A stretch of 41,124 bases of DNA from Chthoniobacteraceae bacterium. Its GTDB lineage: Bacteria; Verrucomicrobiota; Verrucomicrobiia; Chthoniobacterales; Chthoniobacteraceae. Shown piece by piece: positions 3,223 through 31,953 of this stretch (positions are counted from its first letter, which is position 1; the number at the start of each line of letters is the position of its first letter). The stretch covers positions 1 to 41,124 of the forward strand of contig JANNWY010000297.1 of the NCBI GenBank assembly GCA_031409335.1, read 5' to 3'. Both the position numbers and the translations under genes were made by a program. Under the pieces are notes generated by a model. The model saw nothing but the letters and a program-made list of their open reading frames with translations. It made no database searches and had not been told where the DNA came from.

Positions 3223-4017
3223 CTACTTTCTTAGCGGGAGCCAGTCGAGCACGCGCTGGATTTGCGCGTCCCAATACTCCCACTCGTGCTCGCCGGGCCC
3301 TTCTTCGTAGGTATTTTCGAGCTGAACGCTGTCGAGCTGTTTTCGAAAGTCACGGCTATCGGAAAGCAGTTCGTCCCCGGTGCCGCAGCAGAGGTAGAGC
3401 TTTGGCTTGGAGCCTGCGGACGACGCCACTTTTTGCGCGAGCGCGAAAAGATCGGCGTCGGTCCCCGCGCCCTTCAACTCCGCGCCAAACATGCCCGCCC
3501 ACTCGGCGCGGCTCATTCGCGAGCCTTCCTTTCCGACTTCGCGCAGACGCTTCGCGAGATCGAGCGCGCCGCTGAGACTAGCGACGGCGGCGAATTTATC
3601 GGGCCGTCCGAGCCCGAGCCGCAGCGCGCCGTAGCCGCCCATCGAGAGCCCGGCGGCGAAGTTGTCTTCGCGCGCGGCGGACAGCGGGAACCATTGCTGG
3701 CACAGCGCGGGCAGCTCTTCGCTGAGGAAGGTCCAGTAGTTCGGCCCGCTCGCCATGTCCTGATAGAAGCTGCGCGCGACCGCGGGCATCACCACGGCGA
3801 TGTTTTTCTCCGCCGCGTAGCGCTCGATCGAAGTGCGCCTCAGCCAGATCGTGTGATCGTCGCTCAGACCGTGGAGCAAATAGAGCGTCTGGTATTTTTC
3901 GCGCCGCTCACTGCAGCTCGTGGCGATCTCGCGCGTGGATTCTTGCGGCAGTAAAACGTAGAACGCCACAGACAAGCCAAGTGCCTCGGAAAAGCAGTGA
4001 ACGTCGAGAAAAGCCAT
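3223..4017 (-). CDS. Alpha/beta-hydrolase esterase (putative acetylesterase/tributyrin-esterase family)
   Basis: LLHGLSDD, GLSMGG nucleophile elbow, GEHEWEYW. Confidence 0.9.
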   Translation of the reverse strand: MAFLDVHCFSEALGLSVAFYVLLPQESTREIATSCSERREKYQTLYLLHGLSDDHTIWLRRTSIERYAAEKNIAVVMPAVARSFYQDMASGPNYWTFLSEELPALCQQWFPLSAAREDNFAAGLSMGGYGALRLGLGRPDKFAAVASLSGALDLAKRLREVGKEGSRMSRAEWAGMFGAELKGAGTDADLFALAQKVASSAGSKPKLYLCCGTGDELLSDSRDFRKQLDSVQLENTYEEGPGEHEWEYWDAQIQRVLDWLPLRK

Positions 4018-4024
4018 GCGGCGG

Positions 4025-4052
4025 ACGCTATCCGGGTGGCAGACTGGGTCAA
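4025..4052 (-). promoter_or_regulatory. Putative sigma70 promoter for a leaderless esterase mRNA
   Basis: TTGACC-N16-TAGCGT-N7-ATG. Confidence 0.55.
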
Positions 4053-4161
4053 GATCGCGCCACCCGGCCGCGCTCCATTTTCCCCCTGCGTGGCGCGCCC
4101 CTCGCTTTCCCGCCGGGAACCATAAGATTGACTTCGCGCATAAAATTCACAGAGTCACCCC

Positions 4162-5028
4162 GTGAAAGTTCCCCTGCACATCGTCCAGGCTCGCCGCGAT
4201 CGGCTCGCTCAGGTCATCGAGCAGCATCGCTACCTTCCAGTGAAGGAACTCTGCTCGCGGCTTGGAGTATCGGAGGCCACCGTCCGGCGCGATTTGGCGG
4301 CGCTGGTGCGGGAAAAGAAGATCACCCGCACCTATGGCGGTGCGCTCCACGAGTTTAATGATCGGTTCCCGTCATTTAGGGAAAGGCAGCGCCAGGCCTC
4401 GCGAGGCAAGGCCAAAACCGTGCGGATGGCGCTCGCGCTCTTCCAGCCGAACCGCACCTACTTTTTCGATTCCGGCACGACGATCTTCGCCCTGGCCGAG
4501 GCCTTTCGCGATCATCCTGTGACGCCCGTAACGATCGTCACGTCAAATCTGCCAGTCGGGGAAATGCTCGCGTCGATCCCCGGCGTGCAGGTTTTCCAAC
4601 TCGCCGGGCAGCTCCTCCACCTGCAATCCACCCTGCTCGGCGAGACGGCGCAAAAGAGCCTCGAGTTTTGGAGTTTTGACCTGGCTTTCCTTTCCGCCGA
4701 GGGCATGGACGCGCAGGGTCTCTGGAATTCGCAGGCCGCCATCGTTGAGCAGCAAAAGGTCGTCCTCCGTCGCTCGAAGCGAACCGTATTTTGCATCGAT
4801 GGATCGAAGCTGAACCGGCAGGCTCCGCATTTCCTGCTGCCGTGGGGCGCGGTGGACCTGCTCATCACTGACCTCCCGAACGCCAAACTCGTCCGCGCCG
4901 GAATCCACCTCGAAGAAAGCCGGCGCGTGCCCGCCCTTGATTTGAAAACCCGCGCGACAACCACGCCCGAATCACCCCATTCGCCAGACTCCGCATCCGA
5001 GGGGGAATACCCGATCCGCATCTTATGA
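4162..5028 (+). CDS. DeoR/GlpR family regulator of the BMC locus
   Basis: LGVSEATVRRDL HTH, RTYGGA, FFDSGTT sugar-phosphate sensor motif. Confidence 0.92.
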   Translation: MKVPLHIVQARRDRLAQVIEQHRYLPVKELCSRLGVSEATVRRDLAALVREKKITRTYGGALHEFNDRFPSFRERQRQASRGKAKTVRMALALFQPNRTYFFDSGTTIFALAEAFRDHPVTPVTIVTSNLPVGEMLASIPGVQVFQLAGQLLHLQSTLLGETAQKSLEFWSFDLAFLSAEGMDAQGLWNSQAAIVEQQKVVLRRSKRTVFCIDGSKLNRQAPHFLLPWGAVDLLITDLPNAKLVRAGIHLEESRRVPALDLKTRATTTPESPHSPDSASEGEYPIRIL

Positions 5029-5061
5029 GCGATGTCCGTCTTAAAAAGATGAAAGTTTTTG

Positions 5062-5106
5062 TTGACCAGCCAGCGCAGATTTATATGATCGCATTCAGTC
5101 ATATAA
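5062..5106 (+). promoter_or_regulatory. BMC operon promoter (TTGACC-N16-TATGAT) overlapped by palindromic operator TTATATGA-N10-TCATATAA
   Basis: -35 at 5062-5067, -10 at 5084-5089; perfect 8-bp inverted repeat 5081-5088/5099-5106 in an AT-rich patch. Confidence 0.65.
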
Positions 5107-5122
5107 CTTTCCCCGCCCCGAA

Positions 5123-5797
5123 ATGAGTTTCACCGAAGCCCCTGCCCGCCCCGTCGTCGAAGCGCTCGTCCGCGCATCGCTCGCCCGGCAACTCGGCAAG
5201 GAAGTGCGGACGGAACCGGCCCCGACGCTCGTGGTCAACAGCTCCGCCCGGCACATGCACATCTCGCCGGAAAATCTGGAGACGCTCTTCGGGCCCGGCG
5301 CGAAACTGACCGTCCACAAATGGCTCTATCAGGAAGGCCAGTTCGCTTCCGAGCAGACCGTTACGTTGATCGGACCGCGCCGCCGGGTCATCCCGAGCCT
5401 GCGCATCCTCGGCCCGTGTCGGAATCTCACCCAAATCGAACTCGCCATCACCGACTCCATCCAGCTCGGGATGGAGATTCCCGTCAAGATGTCCGGCGAC
5501 ATTCAAGGAACCCCTGGCGGCTACGTGATGGGGCCGAAAGGGATGCTGGAAATGAAGGACGGCATCATCCGCGCCGCGCGGCACGTCCACATGTCGCCAG
5601 CCGACGCGAAATTTTACAGCGTCAAACACCTCGACCGCATCACGCTCAAGGTCACCTCCCCGTTCTGCGACACCCGTTTCGACGACCTCATCGTGCGCGT
5701 CGATCCCAGCTTCAAACTCGAAGTCCACATGGACACCGACGAAGCCAACGCCTGCGACCTCGAACGCGCGACGAAGGTCGAACTGTTCAAGAGCTAG
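5123..5797 (+). CDS. pduL: Phosphate propanoyltransferase (PduL-type phosphotransacylase) with N-terminal encapsulation-peptide-like helix
   Basis: SARHMHIS, RILGPCR, AARHVHMS, EVHMDTDEANA motifs. Confidence 0.95.
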   Translation: MSFTEAPARPVVEALVRASLARQLGKEVRTEPAPTLVVNSSARHMHISPENLETLFGPGAKLTVHKWLYQEGQFASEQTVTLIGPRRRVIPSLRILGPCRNLTQIELAITDSIQLGMEIPVKMSGDIQGTPGGYVMGPKGMLEMKDGIIRAARHVHMSPADAKFYSVKHLDRITLKVTSPFCDTRFDDLIVRVDPSFKLEVHMDTDEANACDLERATKVELFKS

Positions 5798-5881
5798 GCC
5801 CGCGAGATATGCGAAAAGACGCAAAATTTACCTCTCACTAAAATCAAAACCCTTTCGCGCCTTTCGCGTTCTTCGCGGGCC
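5797..5881. repeat. Inverted repeat of CGCGAA(A)-containing 9-10-mers (family B, copy 1)
   Basis: ggcccgcgagatatgcgaaaagacgcaaaa vs reverse complement ggcccgcgaagaacgcgaaaggcgcgaaa; begins in the pduL stop codon. Confidence 0.8.
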
Positions 5882-5906
5882 GAATCTAACCAAACCAAAT
5901 AACTAA

Positions 5907-6176
5907 ATGAGCGAAGCAATCGGACTAATCGAAACTCGCGGCTACGTGGGCCTGGTGGAAGCCAGTGATGCCATGGTCAAGGCCGCGAACGTGCAACTCG
6001 TCAAATCCATCCCCATCGGTGGAGCCTTGATCACCACCATCGTCCGCGGCGATGTCGGCAGCGTGAAAGCCGCCGTCGAAGCTGGGAAGGAAGCCGCCAA
6101 GCGCGTCGGCAATCTCGTCGCGTCCCACGTCATCGCCCGGCCCACGCCGGAGCTGCTAAAATTCTTCACCAACTAA
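5907..6176 (+). CDS. BMC-H shell hexamer protein
   Basis: AIGLIETRG, DAMVKAANV, GDVGSVKAAV, HVIARP. Confidence 0.95.
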   Translation: MSEAIGLIETRGYVGLVEASDAMVKAANVQLVKSIPIGGALITTIVRGDVGSVKAAVEAGKEAAKRVGNLVASHVIARPTPELLKFFTN

Positions 6177-6197
6177 CTTAGCAACCTACTTACCTAT

Positions 6198-6503
6198 ATG
6201 GCTGGACAAGCAATCGGAATGATCGAAACCAAGGGCCTCGTCGCGCAGTTCGAAGCAACTGACGCCATGACCAAGGCCGCGAATGTAGAACTGATCGGCT
6301 GGGAAAAAGTCGGCTCGGGCTACGTCACCGTCTTTGTCAAAGGCGACGTTGCCGCGGTGAAAGCCGCCGTCGAAGCCGGCGCAACCGCCGCGACGGCGAT
6401 CGGCGAAGTCGTCGCCGTCCACGTGATCCCACGTCCGCACGACGACCTGCACCTCCTCGGAAAATTCCTCGGCGGAAAGCCCGCGAGCGCACCCGCGAAA
6501 TAA
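6198..6503 (+). CDS. BMC-H shell hexamer protein
   Basis: [35 protein letters not shown]. Confidence 0.95.
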
Positions 6504-6546
6504 GTTACATAAGTCACATAGGTCCCATGGGCCGTATGCGACCTAT
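6501..6546. repeat. 9-mer tandem/palindromic element TA(A/G)GT(C/T)(A/C)CA (family C)
   Basis: taagttaca taagtcaca taggtccca followed by an inverted copy (tgggccgtatgcgacctat), centred on CCCATGGG; starts at the stop codon. Confidence 0.7.
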
Positions 6547-6554
6547 CCGAACCC

Positions 6555-7739
6555 ATGACGCCCAACAACATCCTCGTCGCCAACATCGGCAGCACTTCGT
6601 TCAAGTTTCGCTTGATCGAAATGCCCTCCGAGCGCGTCTTGGCGAAGGGTGGCGTCGAGCGGATCGGCAGCGCGGAATCGACCTATAAGTATCAGGTCGG
6701 CACCGACGCGGAGCAGAAAGGCGTGGCCGCATTGCCAGACCACGCCGCAGCCATCGCGCTCGTCGAGAAAGCGCTCGGCGGATTCAGCGGCCTCGCGGCG
6801 GTCGGCTTCAAGCCCGTGATGGCCCGCGGCATCTCCGGCACGCAGGTGCTCGACGAGCCGGTGCTCCGCGCGATGGAGGAAATCAACACCCTTCTCCCCG
6901 CGCACAACCCACCCTACATCGCCGCCGTCCGCAGTTTCGCAAAATCGCACCCGAGGCTGCCGTGCATCGGCACTTTCGAGACCGCGTTTTACGACGAAGT
7001 CCCCGTGGAAAACACGCGTTACCCAGTGCCGCGCGAGTGGGAAACCAAGCATGGCATCCGCCGCTACGGCTTCCACGGCGCGAGCCATCGCTTCGTCTCG
7101 CAACGCTGCGCCGAACTGCGCGGCACAGACAAGCTCCGCATCATCTCCTGCCACCTTGGCGGCAGCAGCTCAATCGCTGCGGTGCGTGATGGGAAAGCCA
7201 TCGACTCAAGCTGGGGCATGACCCCGCAAAGCGGTCTCCCGCAAAACAATCGCGTCGGCGACTTCGACGTCTTCGCCCTCATCTACCTCGCCCGCGATCT
7301 CGGACTCGGAATCGACGCTGTCGAAAAGGCACTCACATCGCAGTCCGGCCTCAAAGGCATGTCCGGGCTCGCGACAGGCGACGTGCGCGACATTCTCGAA
7401 GCTGCGGTGAAAGGCAATGCCGATGCTCGAATCGCCCTCGACGTTTTTGTTGGCGCGATCCGCAAATACGTCGGCCAATTTCTCGTCGAACTGAACGGCG
7501 CGGACGTGCTCATCTTTACCGCTGGCATCGCCGAGAATAACCCGATCCTGCGCGAGAAAATCTGCGCAAACCTCGACTTCTGCGGCCTCGAACTCGATCG
7601 CGAAGCCAACCACAAGACCGGCGCAGTCGAAGCCATCATCTCCACGCCAAGTTCGAAGATCGAAGTGCGCGTGATCCCTACCTACGAAGAAATCATCATC
7701 GCCCGCAACGCGTGGGCCAAACTCTCAACACTCAACTAA
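6555..7739 (+). CDS. ackA: Acetate/propionate kinase
   Basis: NIGSTSFKF, PAHNP, FETAF, RRYGFHGASH, CHLGGSSS, FTAGIAEN. Confidence 0.95.
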   Translation: MTPNNILVANIGSTSFKFRLIEMPSERVLAKGGVERIGSAESTYKYQVGTDAEQKGVAALPDHAAAIALVEKALGGFSGLAAVGFKPVMARGISGTQVLDEPVLRAMEEINTLLPAHNPPYIAAVRSFAKSHPRLPCIGTFETAFYDEVPVENTRYPVPREWETKHGIRRYGFHGASHRFVSQRCAELRGTDKLRIISCHLGGSSSIAAVRDGKAIDSSWGMTPQSGLPQNNRVGDFDVFALIYLARDLGLGIDAVEKALTSQSGLKGMSGLATGDVRDILEAAVKGNADARIALDVFVGAIRKYVGQFLVELNGADVLIFTAGIAENNPILREKICANLDFCGLELDREANHKTGAVEAIISTPSSKIEVRVIPTYEEIIIARNAWAKLSTLN

Positions 7740-7756
7740 AAAACCAACCTAATTAT

Positions 7757-8038
7757 ATGGCACAACAAGCAATCGGAATGATCGAAACGCGCGGACTCGT
7801 CGCACTCGTCGAGGCGACTGACGCGATGCTCAAATCGGCCAACGTCGAACTCGTCGGCCCTATCACCCAGGTCGGCAACGCCATGGTGACCGTCTGCGTC
7901 ACCGGCGACGTCGCCGCCGTCAAAGCCGCCACCGAAGCCGGCAAGACCGCTGCGCAATCGCTCGGCGAAATCGTCAGCGTCAGCGTCATCGCACGCCCGC
8001 ACAGCGACCTCGTCGCCGTCCTCCCGAAGGCCAAGTAA
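7757..8038 (+). CDS. BMC-H shell hexamer protein
   Basis: [13 protein letters not shown]...DAMLKSANV...VIARPH; start placed at ATG 7757. Confidence 0.95.
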   Translation: MAQQAIGMIETRGLVALVEATDAMLKSANVELVGPITQVGNAMVTVCVTGDVAAVKAATEAGKTAAQSLGEIVSVSVIARPHSDLVAVLPKAK

Positions 8039-8057
8039 GCATCACGGTTCTCCAACC

Positions 8058-8366
8058 ATGATTCTTGCGCGAGTCGAAGGCAGTGTCGTCGCGACGAAGA
8101 AGAACGCGAAGATGACTGGGCAGAAATTTCTGCTCGTCCGTCCTCTCGTGATCGATTCGCCCACGGCAAAAGAGTGGAAGCCCGGCACCAGCACGCTGGT
8201 CGCCGTGGATACCCTCGGCGCGGGTGAAGGCGAGATCGTGCTCGTCGTGCAAGGCAGTTCTGCGCGACTCGCCGCGGACGATAAGAACGCACCCGTCGAT
8301 GCCGTTGTGATTGGCATCGTGGACACCGTCGATCTCGGCAAAACCATCCTTTACAAAGCGCAGTGA
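8058..8366 (+). CDS. BMC-P shell pentamer (EutN/CcmL family)
   Basis: MILARVEGSVVATKK, AVDTLGAGEGE, GSSAR, PVDAVVIGIVD. Confidence 0.95.
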   Translation: MILARVEGSVVATKKNAKMTGQKFLLVRPLVIDSPTAKEWKPGTSTLVAVDTLGAGEGEIVLVVQGSSARLAADDKNAPVDAVVIGIVDTVDLGKTILYKAQ

Positions 8367-8369
8367 ATT

Positions 8370-8467
8370 GAACTCCGAACTTCCAAACCTGAACGTCCAA
8401 CTTCGAATCAACGCCGCGAACGCGAACACTTCTGCGATCGGTGTTGAGGTTTCGATGTTCGGCGTTC
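8370..8467. repeat. Empty heptamer inverted-repeat cassette (family A, copy 1)
   Basis: gaactcc gaacttc caaacct gaacgtc caacttc; right arm 8440-8467 reverse complement gaacgcc gaacatc gaaacct caacacc. Confidence 0.9.
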
Positions 8468-8481
8468 CCCTCTAACTAGAC

Positions 8482-9912
8482 ATGGCAACGATTGACGAAA
8501 GACTAGTATCCAAAGTGGTGAGCGAAGTGCTCGCCCGATTGCAGACGCAGACGAAAGTCGCGTCTTCAGGAGCAAGCAGCTTCGGCGTGTATGAAGACAT
8601 GGACGCAGCCTGCGAGGCCGCACACCGCTCGTTTGAAAAACTCCGCGACCTCGGCGTGTCCGCGCGCCGCAAGGCGATCCAGGTCATCCGCAAGCTGGTT
8701 GTCGCGAAGGCCAAGGAATGGGGCGAGATCGAATTCGCGGAGACAAAGATCGGCCGGCTCGATCACAAGATCGAGAAGCTCAAGATTTGTGGCGACCTTG
8801 TTCCCGGCGTCGAGTTTCTCGAGCGCATGGCTTTCAGCGGCGACTTCGGACTGACGATCATCGACTTCGCGCCATGGGGCGTTATCGGTGCGGTGACGCC
8901 TTCGACCCACAGCGTCCCGACGCTCACTGGGAATGCGATCAACATGATCGCCGCGGGTAACTCGGTCGTCTATAACACCCATCCCGCTGCGGCAAAATGC
9001 GCGGCGATTGCGATTCGGGCTTACAATGAAGCGATCTTTCAGGACATAGGTATCTCCGACCTGCTAACTACCGTCATCAAGCCCACGCTCGATACCTTCG
9101 ATGTGATGTGCAAGCACCCAAAGGTAAAGCTGCTCTGCGTCACCGGCGGTCCCGCAGTCGTCGCAGCAGCGATGAAGACTGGCAAGCGAGCCGTGTGCGC
9201 CGGACCAGGCAATCCGCCCGTCGTCGTCGATGAAACCGCCGATCTTGATGTCGCGGCGAAGTCAATCATCCAGGGCGCGAGCTACGACAACAATCTGCTC
9301 TGCATCGGCGAAAAGGAAGTCTTTGTCGTCGAAGCGGTCGCCGACAAACTCATCGCCGCGCTCAAGCGGGCCGGGGCTGTGCAACTCGACGCACGACAAG
9401 TCGAGGCACTCGCGGATAAAGCATTCGTTTTCCCGCAGGGTAAAGGCGCAGGCTGTCCACATCCGGTCGTGAATCGCGACTTGGTTGGGCGCGACGCCGC
9501 AGTGCTCGCCAAGGCGATCGGCCTCGACGTTCCTCCCGCGACGCAGTTGCTCTTTGGCGAGACGAAAGCCGATCACATCTTCGTCGATGAAGAGCAAATG
9601 ATGCCCTTCATCCCGGTCGTGCGCGTGCCGAATGTCGATGCCGGTATCGAAGCCGCCATCCACGCCGAGCACGGTTACAAGCACACCGCGATCATGCACT
9701 CGCAGAACATCCGCAACCTCACCAAAATGGCGCAGGTCGTGGATACCACGCTCTTCATCAAGAACGGCCCGTGCATGACCGGCCTCGGCCTTGGCGGCGA
9801 AGGGTTCCTCAGCTTCAGCGTCGCCACGCCGACCGGTGAAGGCGTCACGACACCCATGACTTTCACACGCTCCCGGCGGTGTGTGATGGTGGAGAATTTG
9901 AACCTTTTCTGA
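8482..9912 (+). CDS. BMC CoA-acylating aldehyde dehydrogenase (EutE/PduP-like) with N-terminal encapsulation peptide
   Basis: IDERLVSKVVSEVLARL peptide; TGGPAVV, AGPGNPP, DNNLLCIGEKE, EQMMP, ATPTGEG. Confidence 0.95.
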   Translation: MATIDERLVSKVVSEVLARLQTQTKVASSGASSFGVYEDMDAACEAAHRSFEKLRDLGVSARRKAIQVIRKLVVAKAKEWGEIEFAETKIGRLDHKIEKLKICGDLVPGVEFLERMAFSGDFGLTIIDFAPWGVIGAVTPSTHSVPTLTGNAINMIAAGNSVVYNTHPAAAKCAAIAIRAYNEAIFQDIGISDLLTTVIKPTLDTFDVMCKHPKVKLLCVTGGPAVVAAAMKTGKRAVCAGPGNPPVVVDETADLDVAAKSIIQGASYDNNLLCIGEKEVFVVEAVADKLIAALKRAGAVQLDARQVEALADKAFVFPQGKGAGCPHPVVNRDLVGRDAAVLAKAIGLDVPPATQLLFGETKADHIFVDEEQMMPFIPVVRVPNVDAGIEAAIHAEHGYKHTAIMHSQNIRNLTKMAQVVDTTLFIKNGPCMTGLGLGGEGFLSFSVATPTGEGVTTPMTFTRSRRCVMVENLNLF

Positions 9913-10356
9913 ACGCCGAACTTCCAAACCTGAACTCTGAACATCGAATGAGTTTATGCCGCGCTTTGACCTTGAGGAACGACTTCTCGACTACGCGGCG
10001 GATGTTATTCGGATCACCAGAACTTTTGAATCAAGCAATGCAGGAAGTCATGTTGCCAACCAGCTATTGCGCTCGGGTACTTCTCCGCTCGCCAATCATG
10101 GCGAAGCGGAATCTGCCAAGTCGAAACGCGACTTTCTGCACCGGCTCCGCACATGCCTGCAAGAGCTTCGCGAATCGTCGCGATGGCTCAAACTCGCAGA
10201 ACGAGTGCCCCTCACCGATCAGCGTGAACCACTCACCAAGCTCATCAAAGAAACGGACGAACTCATTCGCATCTTCTTCGCCAGCATCCGAACAGCAGAA
10301 AGCGGCAACGATGCATGATTCGATGTTGAGCGTTGAGGTTTCGAAGTTCGGCGTTC
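9911..10356. mobile_element. Heptamer inverted-repeat cassette (family A, copy 2) enclosing a four-helix-bundle gene
   Basis: 39-bp arms 9911-9949 and 10318-10356, 35/39 identical; mobility is inferred, not shown. Confidence 0.6.
9956..10318 (+). CDS. Four helix bundle protein (23S rRNA intervening-sequence protein / TIGR02436-like)
   Basis: DLEERLLDYA, QLLRSGTSPLANHGEAESAKSKRDFLHRL, ELRESSRWL, ETDELIRIF. Confidence 0.9.
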   Translation: MPRFDLEERLLDYAADVIRITRTFESSNAGSHVANQLLRSGTSPLANHGEAESAKSKRDFLHRLRTCLQELRESSRWLKLAERVPLTDQREPLTKLIKETDELIRIFFASIRTAESGNDA

Positions 10357-10375
10357 TTCCGAATTCTTCAATTCA

Positions 10376-10639
10376 ATGAGACTAGCCACGATTAAGGGTC
10401 ACGTTACCGCGACGATGAAGCACAAGAGCCTCAATGGCTGGCGGCTGCTCATCGCGATTCCTGACAGTCCCGATCTGGCTCCGCAGATCGTGCTCGACCC
10501 GCTGGGTGCAGGCATTGGGCAAAAGGTGATGATCTCCAGCGATGGTAGCGAAGCGCGCAAGATCGTGGGAGACGAGCGGAGCCCGGCGCGCTGGACTGTG
10601 CTTGGAATCATTGATCCGGAAAGGACGCTCGCGCTATGA
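10376..10639 (+). CDS. BMC-P shell pentamer (EutN/CcmL family)
   Basis: MRLATIKGHVTATMKH, DPLGAGIGQKVMISSDG, GIID. Confidence 0.92.
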   Translation: MRLATIKGHVTATMKHKSLNGWRLLIAIPDSPDLAPQIVLDPLGAGIGQKVMISSDGSEARKIVGDERSPARWTVLGIIDPERTLAL

Positions 10640-10914
10640 GAATGGGGACCGTAATCGGTCGAGTGACGCTTTCCGTTCGTTCGCCGAAATACATTGGCGA
10701 GCGGCTGCTCATCACGCTGCCTTGGAAGACGGATACCTTTACCGGTGCGGAGAGATTCGACCCAGCCATCGTGGTCTATGACCAGCTCGGCGCGGGGGTC
10801 GGACAGCAGATCGCCATCAGCGAAGGCCGCGAAGCCGCCTGCCCATTTGAGAAGCCAACCCCCGTCGATGCCTACTGCGCTGCGCTCGTCGATGAATTTT
10901 TCTACAAGGAGTAA
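10636..10914 (+). CDS. BMC-P shell pentamer (EutN/CcmL family)
   Basis: MRMGTVIGRVTLS, DQLGAGVGQ, SEGREA, PVDAYCAALVD; ATGA overlap with previous gene. Confidence 0.92.
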   Translation: MRMGTVIGRVTLSVRSPKYIGERLLITLPWKTDTFTGAERFDPAIVVYDQLGAGVGQQIAISEGREAACPFEKPTPVDAYCAALVDEFFYKE

Positions 10915-10917
10915 ACT

Positions 10918-11982
10918 ATGCAATTGATCGCCCAAAAAGAAGCCGCTGAGTTTGTGAAAACCGGCGCGAAAGAGTTTCGTCAGAACTCAGAAATCCGCCT
11001 CACGCCTGGCGCTAAGGACATCTTTACGGAAAGCGGAATCAAGGTTGTCTTTGACTCCGGTGCCGCCGCGCCCGTGTCGTCGCCCGCTCCCGCCACAAGC
11101 AGCGCACCGGGCAACTACAGCGCGGATGACGTGCGACTTTTCGCCTCAAAGGAGGCCAACGAAATCAAAGAGCAAATCTGCGACATCGGACGCCGCATCT
11201 GGGCTCGCGAGTATTGCGATGGCAATGGCGGTAACATCTCCGCGCGCCTGGGGCCGGATCGTTTTATCTGCACGCCGACGGGCGTTAGCAAAGGCTTCAT
11301 GACGCCAGCGATGATGTGCATGGTCGATGGCAAGGGAACCCAGTGCGGGGGAACTTGGAAGCGCTCGAGCGAGATCACGACCCACATGGCCATCTTTCAC
11401 TCGACGCCGGAAGCCATGAGCGTTTGCCATGCGCACCCATGCCATGCAGGTGCCTTCGCGATCAAGGGAATGCAGCCACCGCCGCGATTGATTCCTGAGT
11501 TGGAAGTCTTCGTCGGCACGGTGGCCTACACGCCTTACAAGACACCGGGTTCGCCAGAGATTGCGGCGGAGATTTTCCCGCTTGCGCCGAAACATCAGTC
11601 GATCCTCATGGGTAACCACGGCGTCATCTGCTGGGGCAAATCGGTCGAGGATGCCTACTTCAAAATGGAGATCACCGATGCCTATTGCCGCACGGTTATC
11701 CTGGCGCAGTCCATTCCCGGTTCGGCATCGATCCCGTGCGACAAGCTGCCGGAGCTGCTCAAAATTAAGAAAAGCCTCGGCCTTCCCGACGATCGCTACG
11801 AACTCAAGCCAGCGGGGCTTTGCGAAGTCGATCCGTGGACGCAGATGTGCGGCTCGCATGGCTGCTCGTCGCCAGTGACGCCATTCAATCCGCTGACCAA
11901 CGGCGCTACCACGAGCGACGCCGATCTCGAAGCGTTGGTGCAAAAACTCACCGACGAAATCGTTGCCAACCTCTCCAAATAA
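10918..11982 (+). CDS. Class II aldolase/adducin family (FucA/RhaD-like signature enzyme) with extra N-terminal module and C-terminal encapsulation peptide
   Basis: GNGGNISAR, TPTGVSKG, SSEITTH, HAHP, MGNHGV; C-terminal DLEALVQKLTDEIVANL. Confidence 0.92.
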   Translation: MQLIAQKEAAEFVKTGAKEFRQNSEIRLTPGAKDIFTESGIKVVFDSGAAAPVSSPAPATSSAPGNYSADDVRLFASKEANEIKEQICDIGRRIWAREYCDGNGGNISARLGPDRFICTPTGVSKGFMTPAMMCMVDGKGTQCGGTWKRSSEITTHMAIFHSTPEAMSVCHAHPCHAGAFAIKGMQPPPRLIPELEVFVGTVAYTPYKTPGSPEIAAEIFPLAPKHQSILMGNHGVICWGKSVEDAYFKMEITDAYCRTVILAQSIPGSASIPCDKLPELLKIKKSLGLPDDRYELKPAGLCEVDPWTQMCGSHGCSSPVTPFNPLTNGATTSDADLEALVQKLTDEIVANLSK

Positions 11983-11987
11983 TTATG

Positions 11988-12062
11988 GCCCTCGAAAAAC
12001 GCGAAATGACGCGAAAATTCTGGCAGAAAATCCTTTCGCGTTGTTTCGCGCCTTTCGCGGGC
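11988..12062. repeat. Inverted repeat of CGCGAAA-containing units (family B, copy 2)
   Basis: gccctcgaaaaacgcgaaatgacgcgaaa vs reverse complement gcccgcgaaaggcgcgaaacaacgcgaaa. Confidence 0.85.
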
Positions 12063-12078
12063 AACAAAAAATCCTGAT

Positions 12079-13005
12079 ATGAAAGTAGCAATCATTGGCG
12101 GCGGTGGCCGCGTCGGTTCTTGCGCGGCGTTTGCGCTGCAATGCAGCGGTGTCGTCCGCGAGCTAGTCATCCTCGATGCCAACCAGGCGACTGCGGAGGG
12201 CGAGGCACTCGACCTTTTGCATGGCGCGGCGTTTTGCAGCGACCAGGTGATCCGTGCGGGTAACTTTGCGGATTGCGCAGATGCGGACATCATTTGCATC
12301 ACGGCGGGACTTCGCCGGAAGCCAGATGAATCACGGCTCGATCTGATCAACCGCAACGTGTCCCTCTTTCGCGGAATCCTCGCGAGCCTCAAGAGCGCGG
12401 GGATCAAGAAGGACGCGATCATTTTTGTCGTCTCGAATCCGGTCGATATTCTTACCTATCTCGCTTGGAAGGAAACGGGCCTGCCGGAAAACCAGGTCAT
12501 CGGCCTCGGCACGATGCTCGATACCTCGCGCTTCTGCTCGCTGATCGCCGACTCGATCAAGCTCCCACCCACCCAAGTCCGCGCGATGATCCTCGGCGAA
12601 CACGGCGACTCGATGGTGCCGATCTGGTCGTCCGCGACCGTCGATGGTTTCCCGCTCACGAAATTCGCCGGAGTCACGCCGACTTTCCAAACGCAGATCT
12701 TCGAGCGCACGCAGAAGAGCGGCGCGGAAGTCATCTCGCGCAAAGGCGGCGCGGGCTGGGCGGTCGGCGTCGCAATCCGCGAAGTGATCGACTGCATCGC
12801 ACTGGATCGTCGTCGCATCCTGCCCGTGTCGGCCTTGGTCAAAGGCACCTATGGCATCCGGGACGTGTCGATCAGCGTGCCGACCGTGGTCGGTCGCGCG
12901 GGCGTCTTGCAGCAGATCGAGATCGAGCTGTGGCCAAAGGAACTCAACGGCCTGCAAAGCTCGGCGAAGGCGCTCAAGGACACGCTCAGCAAGGTGCAGG
13001 GCTGA
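12079..13005 (+). CDS. L-lactate/malate dehydrogenase family protein
   Basis: IIGGGGRVG, TAGLRRKPDESRLDL, SNPVD, GTMLDTSR, LGEHGDS. Confidence 0.93.
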   Translation: MKVAIIGGGGRVGSCAAFALQCSGVVRELVILDANQATAEGEALDLLHGAAFCSDQVIRAGNFADCADADIICITAGLRRKPDESRLDLINRNVSLFRGILASLKSAGIKKDAIIFVVSNPVDILTYLAWKETGLPENQVIGLGTMLDTSRFCSLIADSIKLPPTQVRAMILGEHGDSMVPIWSSATVDGFPLTKFAGVTPTFQTQIFERTQKSGAEVISRKGGAGWAVGVAIREVIDCIALDRRRILPVSALVKGTYGIRDVSISVPTVVGRAGVLQQIEIELWPKELNGLQSSAKALKDTLSKVQG

Positions 13006-13010
13006 GGAAT

Positions 13011-13108
13011 GAACGCCGAACTCCCAAACCTGAACGTCGAACTTCGAATTCACAGTTCGGACGCTTTTTCTTCAGCGTTCGGAGTTCAGGTTTGGGCGTT
13101 CGACGTTC
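13011..13108. repeat. Empty heptamer inverted-repeat cassette (family A, copy 3)
   Basis: gaacgcc gaactcc caaacct gaacgtc gaacttc; right arm reverse complement gaacgtc gaacgcc caaacct gaactcc gaacgct. Confidence 0.9.
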
Positions 13109-13115
13109 GCTAAGG

Positions 13116-14294
13116 ATGCAGAAGTCGCTCGACCAAAAGATCGCCGACATCCGGGCGAATCCCTCGGGGAGCAAGGCGTTCATCATTGCCGATGCGAAGG
13201 ATGCGGACATGGCATTTGGCATCACCGCGCCGGGACAAAAGCGCCCGCTCAATCCTGAGCGCGTGCTCAAGTCGGAGATCCGCTGGAAGACGCTCGCGGA
13301 ATACCGGCGGCAGATTCGCGAGGTGGTGCAGCAGGGACTTATCGACATCATGCTTTGCTCGGCGTCGAACGTGGAGCAACTGGCGATCAACGAAGGGCTC
13401 TTCGAGAACTCGCACATCACGCCCGCCGCCCGCGCCAACGACGCCACCGACATCTGGGTCATCCGCGGCGCCGAATACATCCAGCAGCCCTCGCGACCCT
13501 TTCGCACCGCGACCATCGACCACATCAAATGCGGCCAGATCGACTGCGATCCCGCGGCCCCGCACGTCGGCGCGGACCTTGGCCTTTACTCGGTCACGTT
13601 CACCAACGACCTCGATCGCGACTACGAAACGCTGCGCGCCTTCAAGGAATTCCGGGAGGAGGCGGAGCGGAAAAACTTCCGTTACTTCCTCGAAGTGTTC
13701 GACCCGAACGTCGATCCCGGCATTTCCGCCGAGATGGTCGATGGCTTCATCAACGACCACATCATCCGCAGCCTCGCCGGCGTGACCGAGCGCGGGCGTC
13801 CGGTGTTTTTGAAAATCGTCTATCGCGGCCCAAAGGCGATGGAGGAACTCGCCGCCTACGATCCGAACCTCATCGTCGGCATCCTCGGCGGCGGCGCGGG
13901 CACGACCTACGACGCCTTCAAGCTCATCGCCGAAGCGCAGAAACACGGTGCGCGCGTCGCCCTCTTCGGACGCAAGATCAACCAAGCCGAGCACCCGCTC
14001 GCCTTCATCGAAATGCTGCGTCGCATCGTCGAGCACGAGATCACCCCCGAGGAAGCCGTGCGCGCCTACCACAGCGTGCTGCTGGCCAGCGGCATCGCGC
14101 CTTTGCGCAAACTCGAGGACGACCAGCAACTCACCTCCGGCATCACCAGCTACGGTGGCACTGGCGCGAAGATCGTAAAACCGGCTGGCGTGCCAGCAGT
14201 GAAAACAGGCGAAACCATTTCCGCCGAAAACACCGCCGCGCGCACCCGCCTCGACGCGCAGCTCGCGCGGCTGCGCAGGCGGCTTCCCGAATAG
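13116..14294 (+). CDS. Conserved hypothetical protein, probable class I (Schiff-base) aldolase-like TIM barrel
   Basis: Start ATG 13116 after TAAGG; FLKIVY (candidate Schiff-base Lys), ILGGGAG and LFGRKI resemble DhnA/LsrF motifs. Confidence 0.65.
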   Translation: MQKSLDQKIADIRANPSGSKAFIIADAKDADMAFGITAPGQKRPLNPERVLKSEIRWKTLAEYRRQIREVVQQGLIDIMLCSASNVEQLAINEGLFENSHITPAARANDATDIWVIRGAEYIQQPSRPFRTATIDHIKCGQIDCDPAAPHVGADLGLYSVTFTNDLDRDYETLRAFKEFREEAERKNFRYFLEVFDPNVDPGISAEMVDGFINDHIIRSLAGVTERGRPVFLKIVYRGPKAMEELAAYDPNLIVGILGGGAGTTYDAFKLIAEAQKHGARVALFGRKINQAEHPLAFIEMLRRIVEHEITPEEAVRAYHSVLLASGIAPLRKLEDDQQLTSGITSYGGTGAKIVKPAGVPAVKTGETISAENTAARTRLDAQLARLRRRLPE

Positions 14295-14325
14295 GCCGCA
14301 GTGACCAGGGCGCGCCCGCCCCCGC

Positions 14326-15651
14326 TTACTCGCGCGCGCTGAATTCCGCCCTGACCCAGTCCATTGCCTCATCCGCCGTTTTCAGCGTGCCTTCGAGCTG
14401 GCGCGATTGCACGGCTTCGAGGATTTCCGAAAAGCGCGGGCCGGGTGCAAAACCAATGGCCATCAGGTTTCGCCCGGTGATGAGCGGCTTTGGGATCAGC
14501 GGCTCGCTCGCGAACTCCTCGCGCTTTGCTTTTAGAAAATCGTAGTTGTCCAGCGCCCCGTGGCTGCTCGTGCAATCGACCCGGTGCAGCTCCATCTCCT
14601 CGTCGAAATGCGGCCGCGCCATGAAGCGTTTCAGCTTCGCCACGCGCATCTGCTGCACGTCCTTGAAGACCATGTGATTCGCGACAGCCGCGACCGTCGC
14701 TTCGATGTCCGCGCGGGTGAAACGCAGCCGCGACATCAGCGCCTCCGTCATCTCCGCGCCGATTTTGTCGTGGCCGTTGAAACGGATGCGACCGTCGGGA
14801 TCGACGACGAAAGTCGGCGGCTTGCCGATGTCGTGAAAGAGCACGGACATCACCAATGGCAGCGTCACTTCGCGTGGCAGCAGACCGAGCATGATGCGGG
14901 TGTGGACGAACACATCGCCCTCGGGATGAAACTGCGGCGGCTGCTCGCAACCCTTGAGCGCATCGAGCTCCGGCAGCACTTCATTCATTAGCCCGCTCGC
15001 ATCCAACAGATCGAAACCACGCACGCGATTCGGCGAAAGGAAGATTTTCACCAGCTCCTCGCGGATGCGCTCCGCGCTGACCTCGTGAATAAACGCGGCG
15101 CTTTCCCGCACCGCCGCCCAAGTCGCGGGCTCGATTTCAAACTCCAGCGTCGTCGCAAATCGCACCGCGCGCAGCAGCCGCAGGCGGTCCTCGCGAAAAC
15201 GCGCAGCGGGATCGCCGATCGCGCGCAGCACCTTCGCCGCGAGATCGCGCTGGCCGTTCACATAGTCCACGAGCTGCTCGCGGATCGGGTCGTGGAAAAG
15301 GCCGTTGATCGTGAAATCGCGCCGCTGCGCGTCCTCTTCCGGCGTCGCAAAAGTCACGCTCTCCGGATGCCGCCCGTCGAGATACACACCGTCCGCGCGG
15401 AACGACGCGACCTGAAATTGATCCGACGCATAGACGACGACCACGACGCCAAAATGCGCGCCGACCGCAAACGTGCGATCGAACAACGCCTGCACCTGCT
15501 CGGGCCGCGCGCTCGTCGCGATGTCGTAATCGTGTGGCTCGACGCCCATCAATTTGTCGCGCACACAACCGCCAGCGAAAAGCGCGGTGTGGCCAGCTTC
15601 CTGAAGGCGCTGGACGACACGGCGGGCGGATCTGGCGAGAGTGGCGGACAC
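14326..15651 (-). CDS. CCA tRNA nucleotidyltransferase / poly(A) polymerase family with HD domain
   Basis: AGGCVRD, DYDIAT, RRDFTING, EDRLRLLRAVRF, HPEGDV, FHDIGK. Confidence 0.93.
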   Translation of the reverse strand: MSATLARSARRVVQRLQEAGHTALFAGGCVRDKLMGVEPHDYDIATSARPEQVQALFDRTFAVGAHFGVVVVVYASDQFQVASFRADGVYLDGRHPESVTFATPEEDAQRRDFTINGLFHDPIREQLVDYVNGQRDLAAKVLRAIGDPAARFREDRLRLLRAVRFATTLEFEIEPATWAAVRESAAFIHEVSAERIREELVKIFLSPNRVRGFDLLDASGLMNEVLPELDALKGCEQPPQFHPEGDVFVHTRIMLGLLPREVTLPLVMSVLFHDIGKPPTFVVDPDGRIRFNGHDKIGAEMTEALMSRLRFTRADIEATVAAVANHMVFKDVQQMRVAKLKRFMARPHFDEEMELHRVDCTSSHGALDNYDFLKAKREEFASEPLIPKPLITGRNLMAIGFAPGPRFSEILEAVQSRQLEGTLKTADEAMDWVRAEFSARE

Positions 15652-24457: not shown

Positions 24458-24551
24458 GAGGGAAATGACCAGTTGCCAATGACCAATGACCAATGACCAG
24501 TTGCGGACTCCGGCATCGGTCATTGGTCATTGGCAATTGGTCATTTCCCTC
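24458..24551. repeat. Inverted repeat of AATGACC heptamers (family E) between the divergent MFS and mutS genes
   Basis: 34-bp arms 24458-24491 and 24518-24551 with one mismatch. Confidence 0.92.
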
Positions 24552-31748: not shown

Positions 31749-31911
31749 TCGCAGGCTGGCTTGGCTGGATGCGGTCGCGGAAATCAGCGCAACCGTTTTC
31801 TTCGGTTCGCACGCGCGCAGGCCGCTTTCACTTCGATTTTTGTTCAGCCCCGCGCAGCGGTCCTTGAAATCGGGACGCGCCTTCGGACCGCCGAGGCGCC
31901 TGCGGCGAGCT

Positions 31912-31953
31912 GAACATCGAACTTCCAACGTCGAACATCGAACATCGAACGCG
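31912..31953. repeat. Solo arm of GAACATC-type heptamers (family A-related)
   Basis: gaacatc gaacttc caacgtc gaacatc gaacatc gaacgcg. Confidence 0.8.

Follow-up and report, generated by a model that had tools for sequence, protein, structure and literature searches.

A four-helix-bundle gene between inverted heptamer arms in a microcompartment operon, a candidate gene-bearing member of a dispersed repeat family

How does a small gene enclosed between two inverted arrays of seven-base repeats come to lie between two genes of a bacterial microcompartment (BMC) operon? The question is raised by a contig of a Chthoniobacteraceae bacterium (JANNWY010000297.1, assembly GCA_031409335.1), of which the whole stretch analysed here, the window, comprises 41,124 nucleotides. 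The operon encodes a DeoR regulator, PduL, shell proteins, an acetate kinase, an aldehyde dehydrogenase, three EutN/CcmL proteins, a class II aldolase and a lactate/malate dehydrogenase, and we take it to be of the PV-BMC type. A preliminary description, made from the sequence alone, had proposed that the gene and its arms form a cassette without encoded transposase, working as an mRNA analogue of the intervening sequences (IVS) found in 23S rRNA. The features of the junction are the following.

8482 to 9912, plus strand: BMC aldehyde dehydrogenase (aldDH), the upstream host gene
9910 to 9949, plus strand: left arm, five heptamers and a partial sixth; the TGA at its start is the aldDH stop codon
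9956 to 10318, plus strand: four-helix-bundle gene (TIGR02436 / PF05635), 120 aa, co-oriented with the operon
10318 to 10356, minus strand: right arm, an inverted copy of the left arm (35/39)
10357 to 10374, no strand: tail 3' of the right arm, up to the eutN start region, 18 nt, missing together with the block in relatives
10376 to 10639, plus strand: EutN/CcmL (BMC-P) vertex protein, the downstream host gene

Re-measurement gave the geometry that had been described. The inverted arms (9911-9949 and 10318-10356) are 39 nt each, 35/39 (90%) complementary and 368 nt apart; they surround the 120-aa gene, the left one reads gaacgcc, gaacttc, caaacct, gaactct and gaacatc followed by gaat, and no transposase is encoded between them. 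Both arms also start inside a stop codon, as had been noticed, the left one at the G of the aldDH TGA (9910-9912) and the right one at the A of the passenger's own TGA (10316-10318). The arm is not a chance sequence, since matches of at least 27/40 occur at 102 sites of the genome and at 0-2 sites for each of five shuffled arms. In the predicted fold of the 486-nt RNA the arms are paired (z -5.2), and 0 of 100 shuffles were equally stable. Neither a sigma-70-like site nor a terminator-like site was found at the arms, and Rfam gave no match at gathering level over positions 4000-15000, its three matches all lying far below the gathering scores.

The product scores 80 bits against TIGR02436 (cut-off 24) and 47.2 bits against PF05635 (cut-off 33.8). 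An AlphaFold2 model based on a 96-sequence alignment has four helices (pLDDT 95.4), and its best structural matches are BT_0352 (2RLD, Z 15.7) and Xcc0516 (2GSC, Z 15.6), with Foldseek TM values of 0.81 to both and of 0.66 to 4DWL. The 2RLD and 2GSC entries contain five chains each, and the protein is predicted to be a homopentamer, judging from the solved homologs and from the account given in PMC4990558. Residues Q36 and E70 are invariant and R9, R39, S43, E73, W77 and E99 nearly so; we recognised no nuclease or transposase motif among these conserved residues. Sequence comparison indicates that the protein is under purifying selection.

Is this cassette a stable part of the operon? The aldehyde dehydrogenase was found in 21 of the 61 genomes searched, this genome included, and the junction 3' of it measures at most 32 nt in 15 of the 20 relatives; in the two closest ones, G003 and G028 (85-86% at the nucleotide level), the aldDH stop directly abuts the next start. 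In the other five, this junction is occupied by different elements: G046 has a four-helix-bundle gene bearing heptamer arms, G031 a GxxExxY gene (family confirmed) with 10-nt-period arms, G008 a gene-less AATGACG doublet (i.e., a pair of inverted arms), G029 a remnant of 333 nt with a single arm of the cassette's subfamily, and G012 an unrelated inverted repeat. G096 likewise carries the cassette between aldDH and eutN. Among contigs from public DNA runs, one joins 9910 to 10375 with one letter between them, i.e., an empty junction, and others come from relatives without three of the operon's gene-less pairs; the joint across the block (X3) and the loose ends that fit it (X1, X2, X5) most likely stem from relatives and not from the source strain. 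One X1 contig, not placed at any junction, has both arms with 30 other letters replacing the gene. A contig from another study bears the cassette at the aldDH-eutN site with 63 differences over 575 nt; the ORF changes listed (n = 22) fall at third positions in 17 cases and leave the amino acid unchanged in 16 of 20 codons.

We also compared 17 element sites with relatives, reading them by eye, and 15 of them had usable flanks. G003 is without the element at 8/8 comparable sites, including the second cognate gene cassette of this genome (on contig C205). No target duplication was seen at the 15 comparable junctions, where flanks are ragged and replaced; an old duplication could have been erased, because relatives are only ~70-90% identical there. 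Hence the presence and absence with sharp boundaries that the preliminary description had in mind is half right: gene and arms come and go as a block, but the boundaries are ragged. A DDE-type insertion sequence or MITE fits poorly, as neither target-site duplications nor sharp ends are visible at these 15 junctions. When a single origin of the three cassettes at the BMC junction was set against several insertions (AU p 0.49 and 0.57), the tree test did not reject one ancient insertion followed by losses (AU p 0.49).

The arms are not unique to the cassette, and the operon contains two gene-less twins of it that had been overlooked, together with doublets of another type.

8369 to 8467, no strand: gene-less doublet of the cassette's arm subfamily, between eutN (BMC-P) and aldDH; missing in the relatives G003 and G028
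13010 to 13109, no strand: gene-less doublet of the cassette's arm subfamily, in the dehydrogenase / aldolase-like gap; missing in G031 and in contigs of relatives
5798 to 5881, no strand: gene-less doublet whose arms have a 9-10-nt period, like those that surround the GxxExxY gene in G031
11983 to 12067, no strand: second gene-less doublet of the 9-10-nt-period type

The left arms of the cassette and of its two twins are mutually 34-37/40 identical, and the match within a pair is best in the gene-bearing one (35/40, versus 27 and 31 in the two gene-less pairs). Doublets resembling those at 5798-5881 and 11983-12067 occur at other junctions of the operon in G025 and G031. Between a shell gene and the acetate kinase, positions 6500-6546 form a 9-nt-period array pair that resembles the arms of a longer four-helix-bundle gene on contig C41, and G028 is similar at that junction. 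Elsewhere in the window, we noted an AATGACC doublet (24464-24545), a lone GAACATC array (31911-31951) and AATCTG-type arrays (693-773). As to the operon itself, in G028 and G022 the aldolase is followed by another gene and a further shell gene, and the dehydrogenase is absent, which is a variant microcompartment layout (L023, L024).

How far do such elements extend over the genome? Arrays with a period of 7 number 332, compared with 8-18 at periods 4, 5, 8, 10, 11 and 13; the high counts at periods 6, 9 and 12 probably reflect codon structure, and 14 is simply twice 7. With a less strict threshold, which gave 374 arrays, we counted 74 inverted versus 7 direct neighbouring pairs of one unit, and in 66 of these 74 inverted pairs the spacer is shorter than 100 nt, with a mode of ~32; there is also a 65-nt spacer class, in which some pairs face outward around another palindrome. 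The 186 AAC-type arrays consist of exactly five units in 98 cases, of fewer in 74 and of more in 14. Gene-less doublets thus far outnumber the gene-bearing form, which the preliminary description had not seen either, and three array families of this genome (19, 16 and 15 arrays) have no matching gene that we could find. The spacers of the doublets are largely unique and ragged; that they might be captured DNA or gene remnants was rejected, the best 40 of the 117 non-self matches being only short ones, other doublets' arms and one other repeat. Among 56 inward-facing doublets, 36 are at co-directional and 7 at divergent junctions, none is at a convergent one and 13 could not be called, i.e., 0/43 at convergent junctions versus a base rate of 17% obtained with identical crude gene calls; an arm overlaps the upstream stop in 8 of the 36 co-directional cases.

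Several individual elements can be described besides. By eye, one spacer end looks like the end of the C205 cassette. In many AAC arrays, the arms are often fused to a separate GC-rich palindrome half (e.g., C11:14783-14919 and C91:18296-18438). The result is a mosaic element that recalls BIMEs, its two arms facing outward from a middle of 65-66 nt. One doublet lies in frame within a long coding sequence (L152:6803-6926, in this genome C195, ~97300), the gene being uninterrupted in G003 and G001. Another one, of the cassette's subfamily (L159:1830-1945, C236:20836-20941), appears to provide the start and the N-terminus of the next gene; it is common to G001 and missing in G004 and G028.

What, then, links the arrays to the gene? 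We identified eight TIGR02436 genes in this genome (three of which were recovered by a first iterative phmmer search), seven with inverted arms by eye, whose units are mostly of 7 nt but also of 6 and 9, and one with direct arrays. The 20 closest homologs examined, out of 21 (one partial match was dropped), all have arm scores of at least 13, while the maximum in 199 control windows is 11; 18 of the 21 records carry the label of Verrucomicrobiota or of one of its subgroups. In a broader set of 114 genes, from which short, duplicate and three weak hits were excluded, the arm score reaches at least 12 in 95 of the 107 homologs with full flanks versus 1 of 92 matched controls. At all three scales, members of the family generally bear inverted arms, in line with the preliminary description.

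Moreover, the sequence of the repeat unit tracks the protein clade and not the host. Clades were assigned from a quick tree of the 114 rows, in which the query's clade comprises 34 rows (SH-aLRT 85); the unit AAC-N-Y-Y-S is found in 30 of the 32 called rows of this clade versus 2 of the 80 rows outside it, and other protein clades have units of their own. Protein pairs of at least 80% identity differ by at most one base in their unit in 59 of 59 cases, as do ~1% of the pairs below 40%; unit distance drops steadily with rising protein identity, and the unit is retained across 50-60% protein identity and many sites. On the other hand, genes of one genome share a unit in 4 of 61 pairs, and in 0 of 33 pairs below 40% identity. 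The query's clade occupies at least 10 unrelated junctions (some labelled by eye from their flanks) and is often at one junction across genera, so that it would move rarely and stay long. The two cognate genes of this genome are 56% identical, and a search for near-identical gene-bearing copies at different sites found none. Arms of a comparable kind also surround a gene of another family in this genome, a GxxExxY gene lying within inverted 9-nt-period arrays (C155:8916-9257), three weaker GxxExxY hits having a short hairpin 5' instead.

We then asked whether gene and arrays are associated at the level of genomes, array abundance being counted in 100 relatives with a pattern of three tandem cognate units. 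At least 15 matches were found in 7/13 genomes with the cognate gene, 3/87 without it and 2/33 with only other clades, and at least 40 in 5/13 cognate-gene genomes versus 0/87; p values at the genome level are overstated for these counts, because kin are not independent and the thresholds were picked after the counts were known. With a second unit, GGATGAR, a gene armed by it is present in each of the three richest genomes and, as far as seen, absent from the fourth, while the AAC-richest genomes without a GGATGAR-armed gene have 0-1 matches. However, a strict dependence of the arrays on the matching gene is contradicted by the gene-less array families and by array-free carriers: 3/13 cognate-gene carriers are without any dispersed-array pattern match, and three second-clade carriers have zero dispersed arrays of their unit. 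A Y1/RAYT helper was considered and set aside; the flanks of these genes are other palindromes, and 9 of 11 Y1_Tnp hits were inspected, none with heptamer arms. Short Y1 transposase genes do lie within multi-hairpin inverted repeats of their own (C83:95998-96333, C229:38185-38520 and C188:1349-1690), and a repeat like these sits in a BMC operon junction of G029.

The reading that we favour, and to which we give about an even chance, is a partnership of the RAYT/REPIN kind, in which the cassette is the gene-bearing member of a selfish repeat family that also includes the gene-less doublets. It starts from what is observed, namely the presence and absence of the block, the arms on most homologs, the tracking of unit and clade, the many doublets, their enrichment with the matching gene and purifying selection. 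It is likely, from these patterns, that the protein binds its own heptamer and that the element moves as DNA. A ring of five subunits, as predicted, would read its own heptamer, each subunit taking roughly one of the five units of an arm. The protein would hold the paired arms, and a postulated host enzyme would copy, insert or remove the doublet at the DNA level, insertions falling mostly just 3' of stop codons inside operons. The gene-bearing form would move seldom and then persist, as RAYT genes do. Cutting of the transcribed stem by RNase III would be a side effect, tolerated as in rRNA-resident members, and not the route of spread. The link between unit and clade could also come from simple co-inheritance. 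The avoidance of convergent junctions suggests that transcription or translation plays some part, which the partnership leaves unexplained.

A rival reading, which builds on the preliminary description, is an mRNA intervening sequence whose arms are kept for pairing in the transcript, so that RNase III cuts the passenger out, the cassette spreading perhaps via an RNA intermediate with the Avd-like protein assisting a reverse transcriptase. Doublets are 3' of stops in co-directional junctions and avoid convergent ones, the predicted stem is strong, and in the Coxiella IVS, where heptamers precede the S23p ORF, RNase III cuts at the first repeat (PMC4990558). We nevertheless regard this reading as unlikely. 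RNase III cleavage alone would not spread a cassette, because there is no religation. If pairing in RNA were selected, an excess of G-U pairs on the sense strand could be looked for, but the counts are 65 versus 60 in 100 cassettes, a weak test if single pairs matter little, and 16 versus 19 in the doublets (n = 36), and arm mismatches are strand-symmetric. The fold of the protein resembles Avd (Z 12.5, rmsd 2.5, 106 aligned residues, 12-14% identity), and homology of Avd with PF05635 is stated in PMC10053308, but a de novo designed bundle scores higher (Z 13.3). Co-occurrence does not favour a reverse transcriptase as helper either: neither of the two array-richest relatives, G061 and G083 (each 94% complete), gave an RVT_1 match, and G008 has 23 RVT_1 matches and the cognate gene, yet no strict-pattern array match.

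Alternatively, the gene could be a passive passenger: hairpins would spread by slippage, template switching or a nuclease acting in trans (e.g., GxxExxY), the gene would have been captured in a loop, and the doublets would be deletion relics. This is less likely again, although it would fit the array families of this genome that have no matching gene and the largely unique, ragged spacers. Against it stand the retention of the unit at 50-60% protein identity over many sites, the purifying selection on the protein, and the peak at five units, unlike what slippage gives. GxxExxY genes are armed in a like manner, with units of 9-10 nt, and are present in all five array-richest relatives, but as they occur in 64/101 genomes they are too widespread to discriminate, their presence is uninformative, and they were dropped as helper candidates. 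We consider it more improbable still that the protein is an RNA-binding host regulator which acts on translation or mRNA stability through the arrays as its operators and autoregulates its own gene. Doublets do lie near gene ends within operons and avoid convergent junctions, and a regulatory role has been suggested for the TAACTGA heptamer repeats of Beggiatoaceae (PMC4679880). However, the elements turn over fast and lineage-specifically (as in G003), the genes they would target have no function in common, a coding sequence is interrupted in frame by one of the doublets, and a single junction carries different arm types in different genomes.

The partnership reading could explain where the 7-base repeats found in many bacterial genomes come from, intergenic repeats that PMC4692102 and PMC4679880 call poorly studied, and it connects three puzzles, i.e., a widespread protein family with solved structures and no function, the origin of ORF-bearing rRNA IVS, and the intergenic excess of 7-base repeats. 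A bolder version, which we hold as possible but doubtful, is that TIGR02436 proteins in general are sequence-specific five-subunit readers of tandem heptamers, each clade driving the copying of its own hairpin doublets without a transposase of its own. If so, they would form a new class of selfish replicators accounting for the bacterial heptamer excess, of which ORF-bearing rRNA IVS would be a special case and GxxExxY nucleases with their 9-10-nt units a parallel branch. If binding is clade-specific, the family would supply small natural repeat readers of many specificities. The present window adds one junction at which the armed cassette varies from genome to genome, the genome-level match of gene clade with array abundance, and two negative results, one on RNA wobble bias and the other on reverse transcriptase dependence. 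In a literature scope without most subscription papers and bioRxiv supplements, where an earlier description is therefore possible, we found no paper joining the TIGR02436/PF05635 family to dispersed heptamer doublets.

Among known systems, diversity-generating retroelements have an adjacent reverse transcriptase, a template repeat and a variable gene, none of which lies beside the cassette, whose neighbours are BMC genes; the two RVT_1 genes of this genome are on other contigs. The GGGAATC repeats of Xanthomonas resemble the arrays described here: each genome contains ~185 heptamer arrays, and convergent inverted pairs, 70-75 in number, lie near stop codons (PMC4692102). Their modal number of units is four and not five as here. 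They are read as G-quadruplex formers, 'four helix' having 0 occurrences in the main text of that article, and in its S2 table one GGGAATC array stands immediately 5' of XCC0516 (2GSC), without comment; no inverted partner is listed after that gene, which counts against the partnership reading.

The S23p IVS of Coxiella burnetii, as reported in PMC4990558, is a PF05635 ORF within a terminal inverted repeat forming a long stem, with heptamers before the ORF. It thus shares with the cassette an inverted repeat and heptamers around a PF05635 ORF, a size of ~430-460 nt and the lack of a transposase. On the contrary, it lies within 23S rRNA, while the cassette is between the protein-coding aldDH and eutN, overlapping a stop codon and not within an rRNA gene. 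Its ORF is reported as decaying, whereas the one here is under purifying selection, and the cassette is accompanied by dozens of gene-less doublets. In design the cassette is like an ORF-bearing IVS, with inverted stem, ORF and heptamers matching the Coxiella element, but by location it is not one.

Finally, REPIN-RAYT systems, on the account of PMC3337134, differ in that their REP cores are palindromic while the arms here are direct tandem heptamers, and in that the partner is an HUH Y1 transposase and not a TIGR02436 four-helix-bundle protein. Whole REPIN doublets are excised within a population; the joints described here come from contigs of diverged relatives. Like the elements of this genome, however, they are intergenic inverted doublets with unique spacers of a preferred length, patchy among close relatives, and they are accompanied by a rare partner gene that is itself flanked by the repeat.
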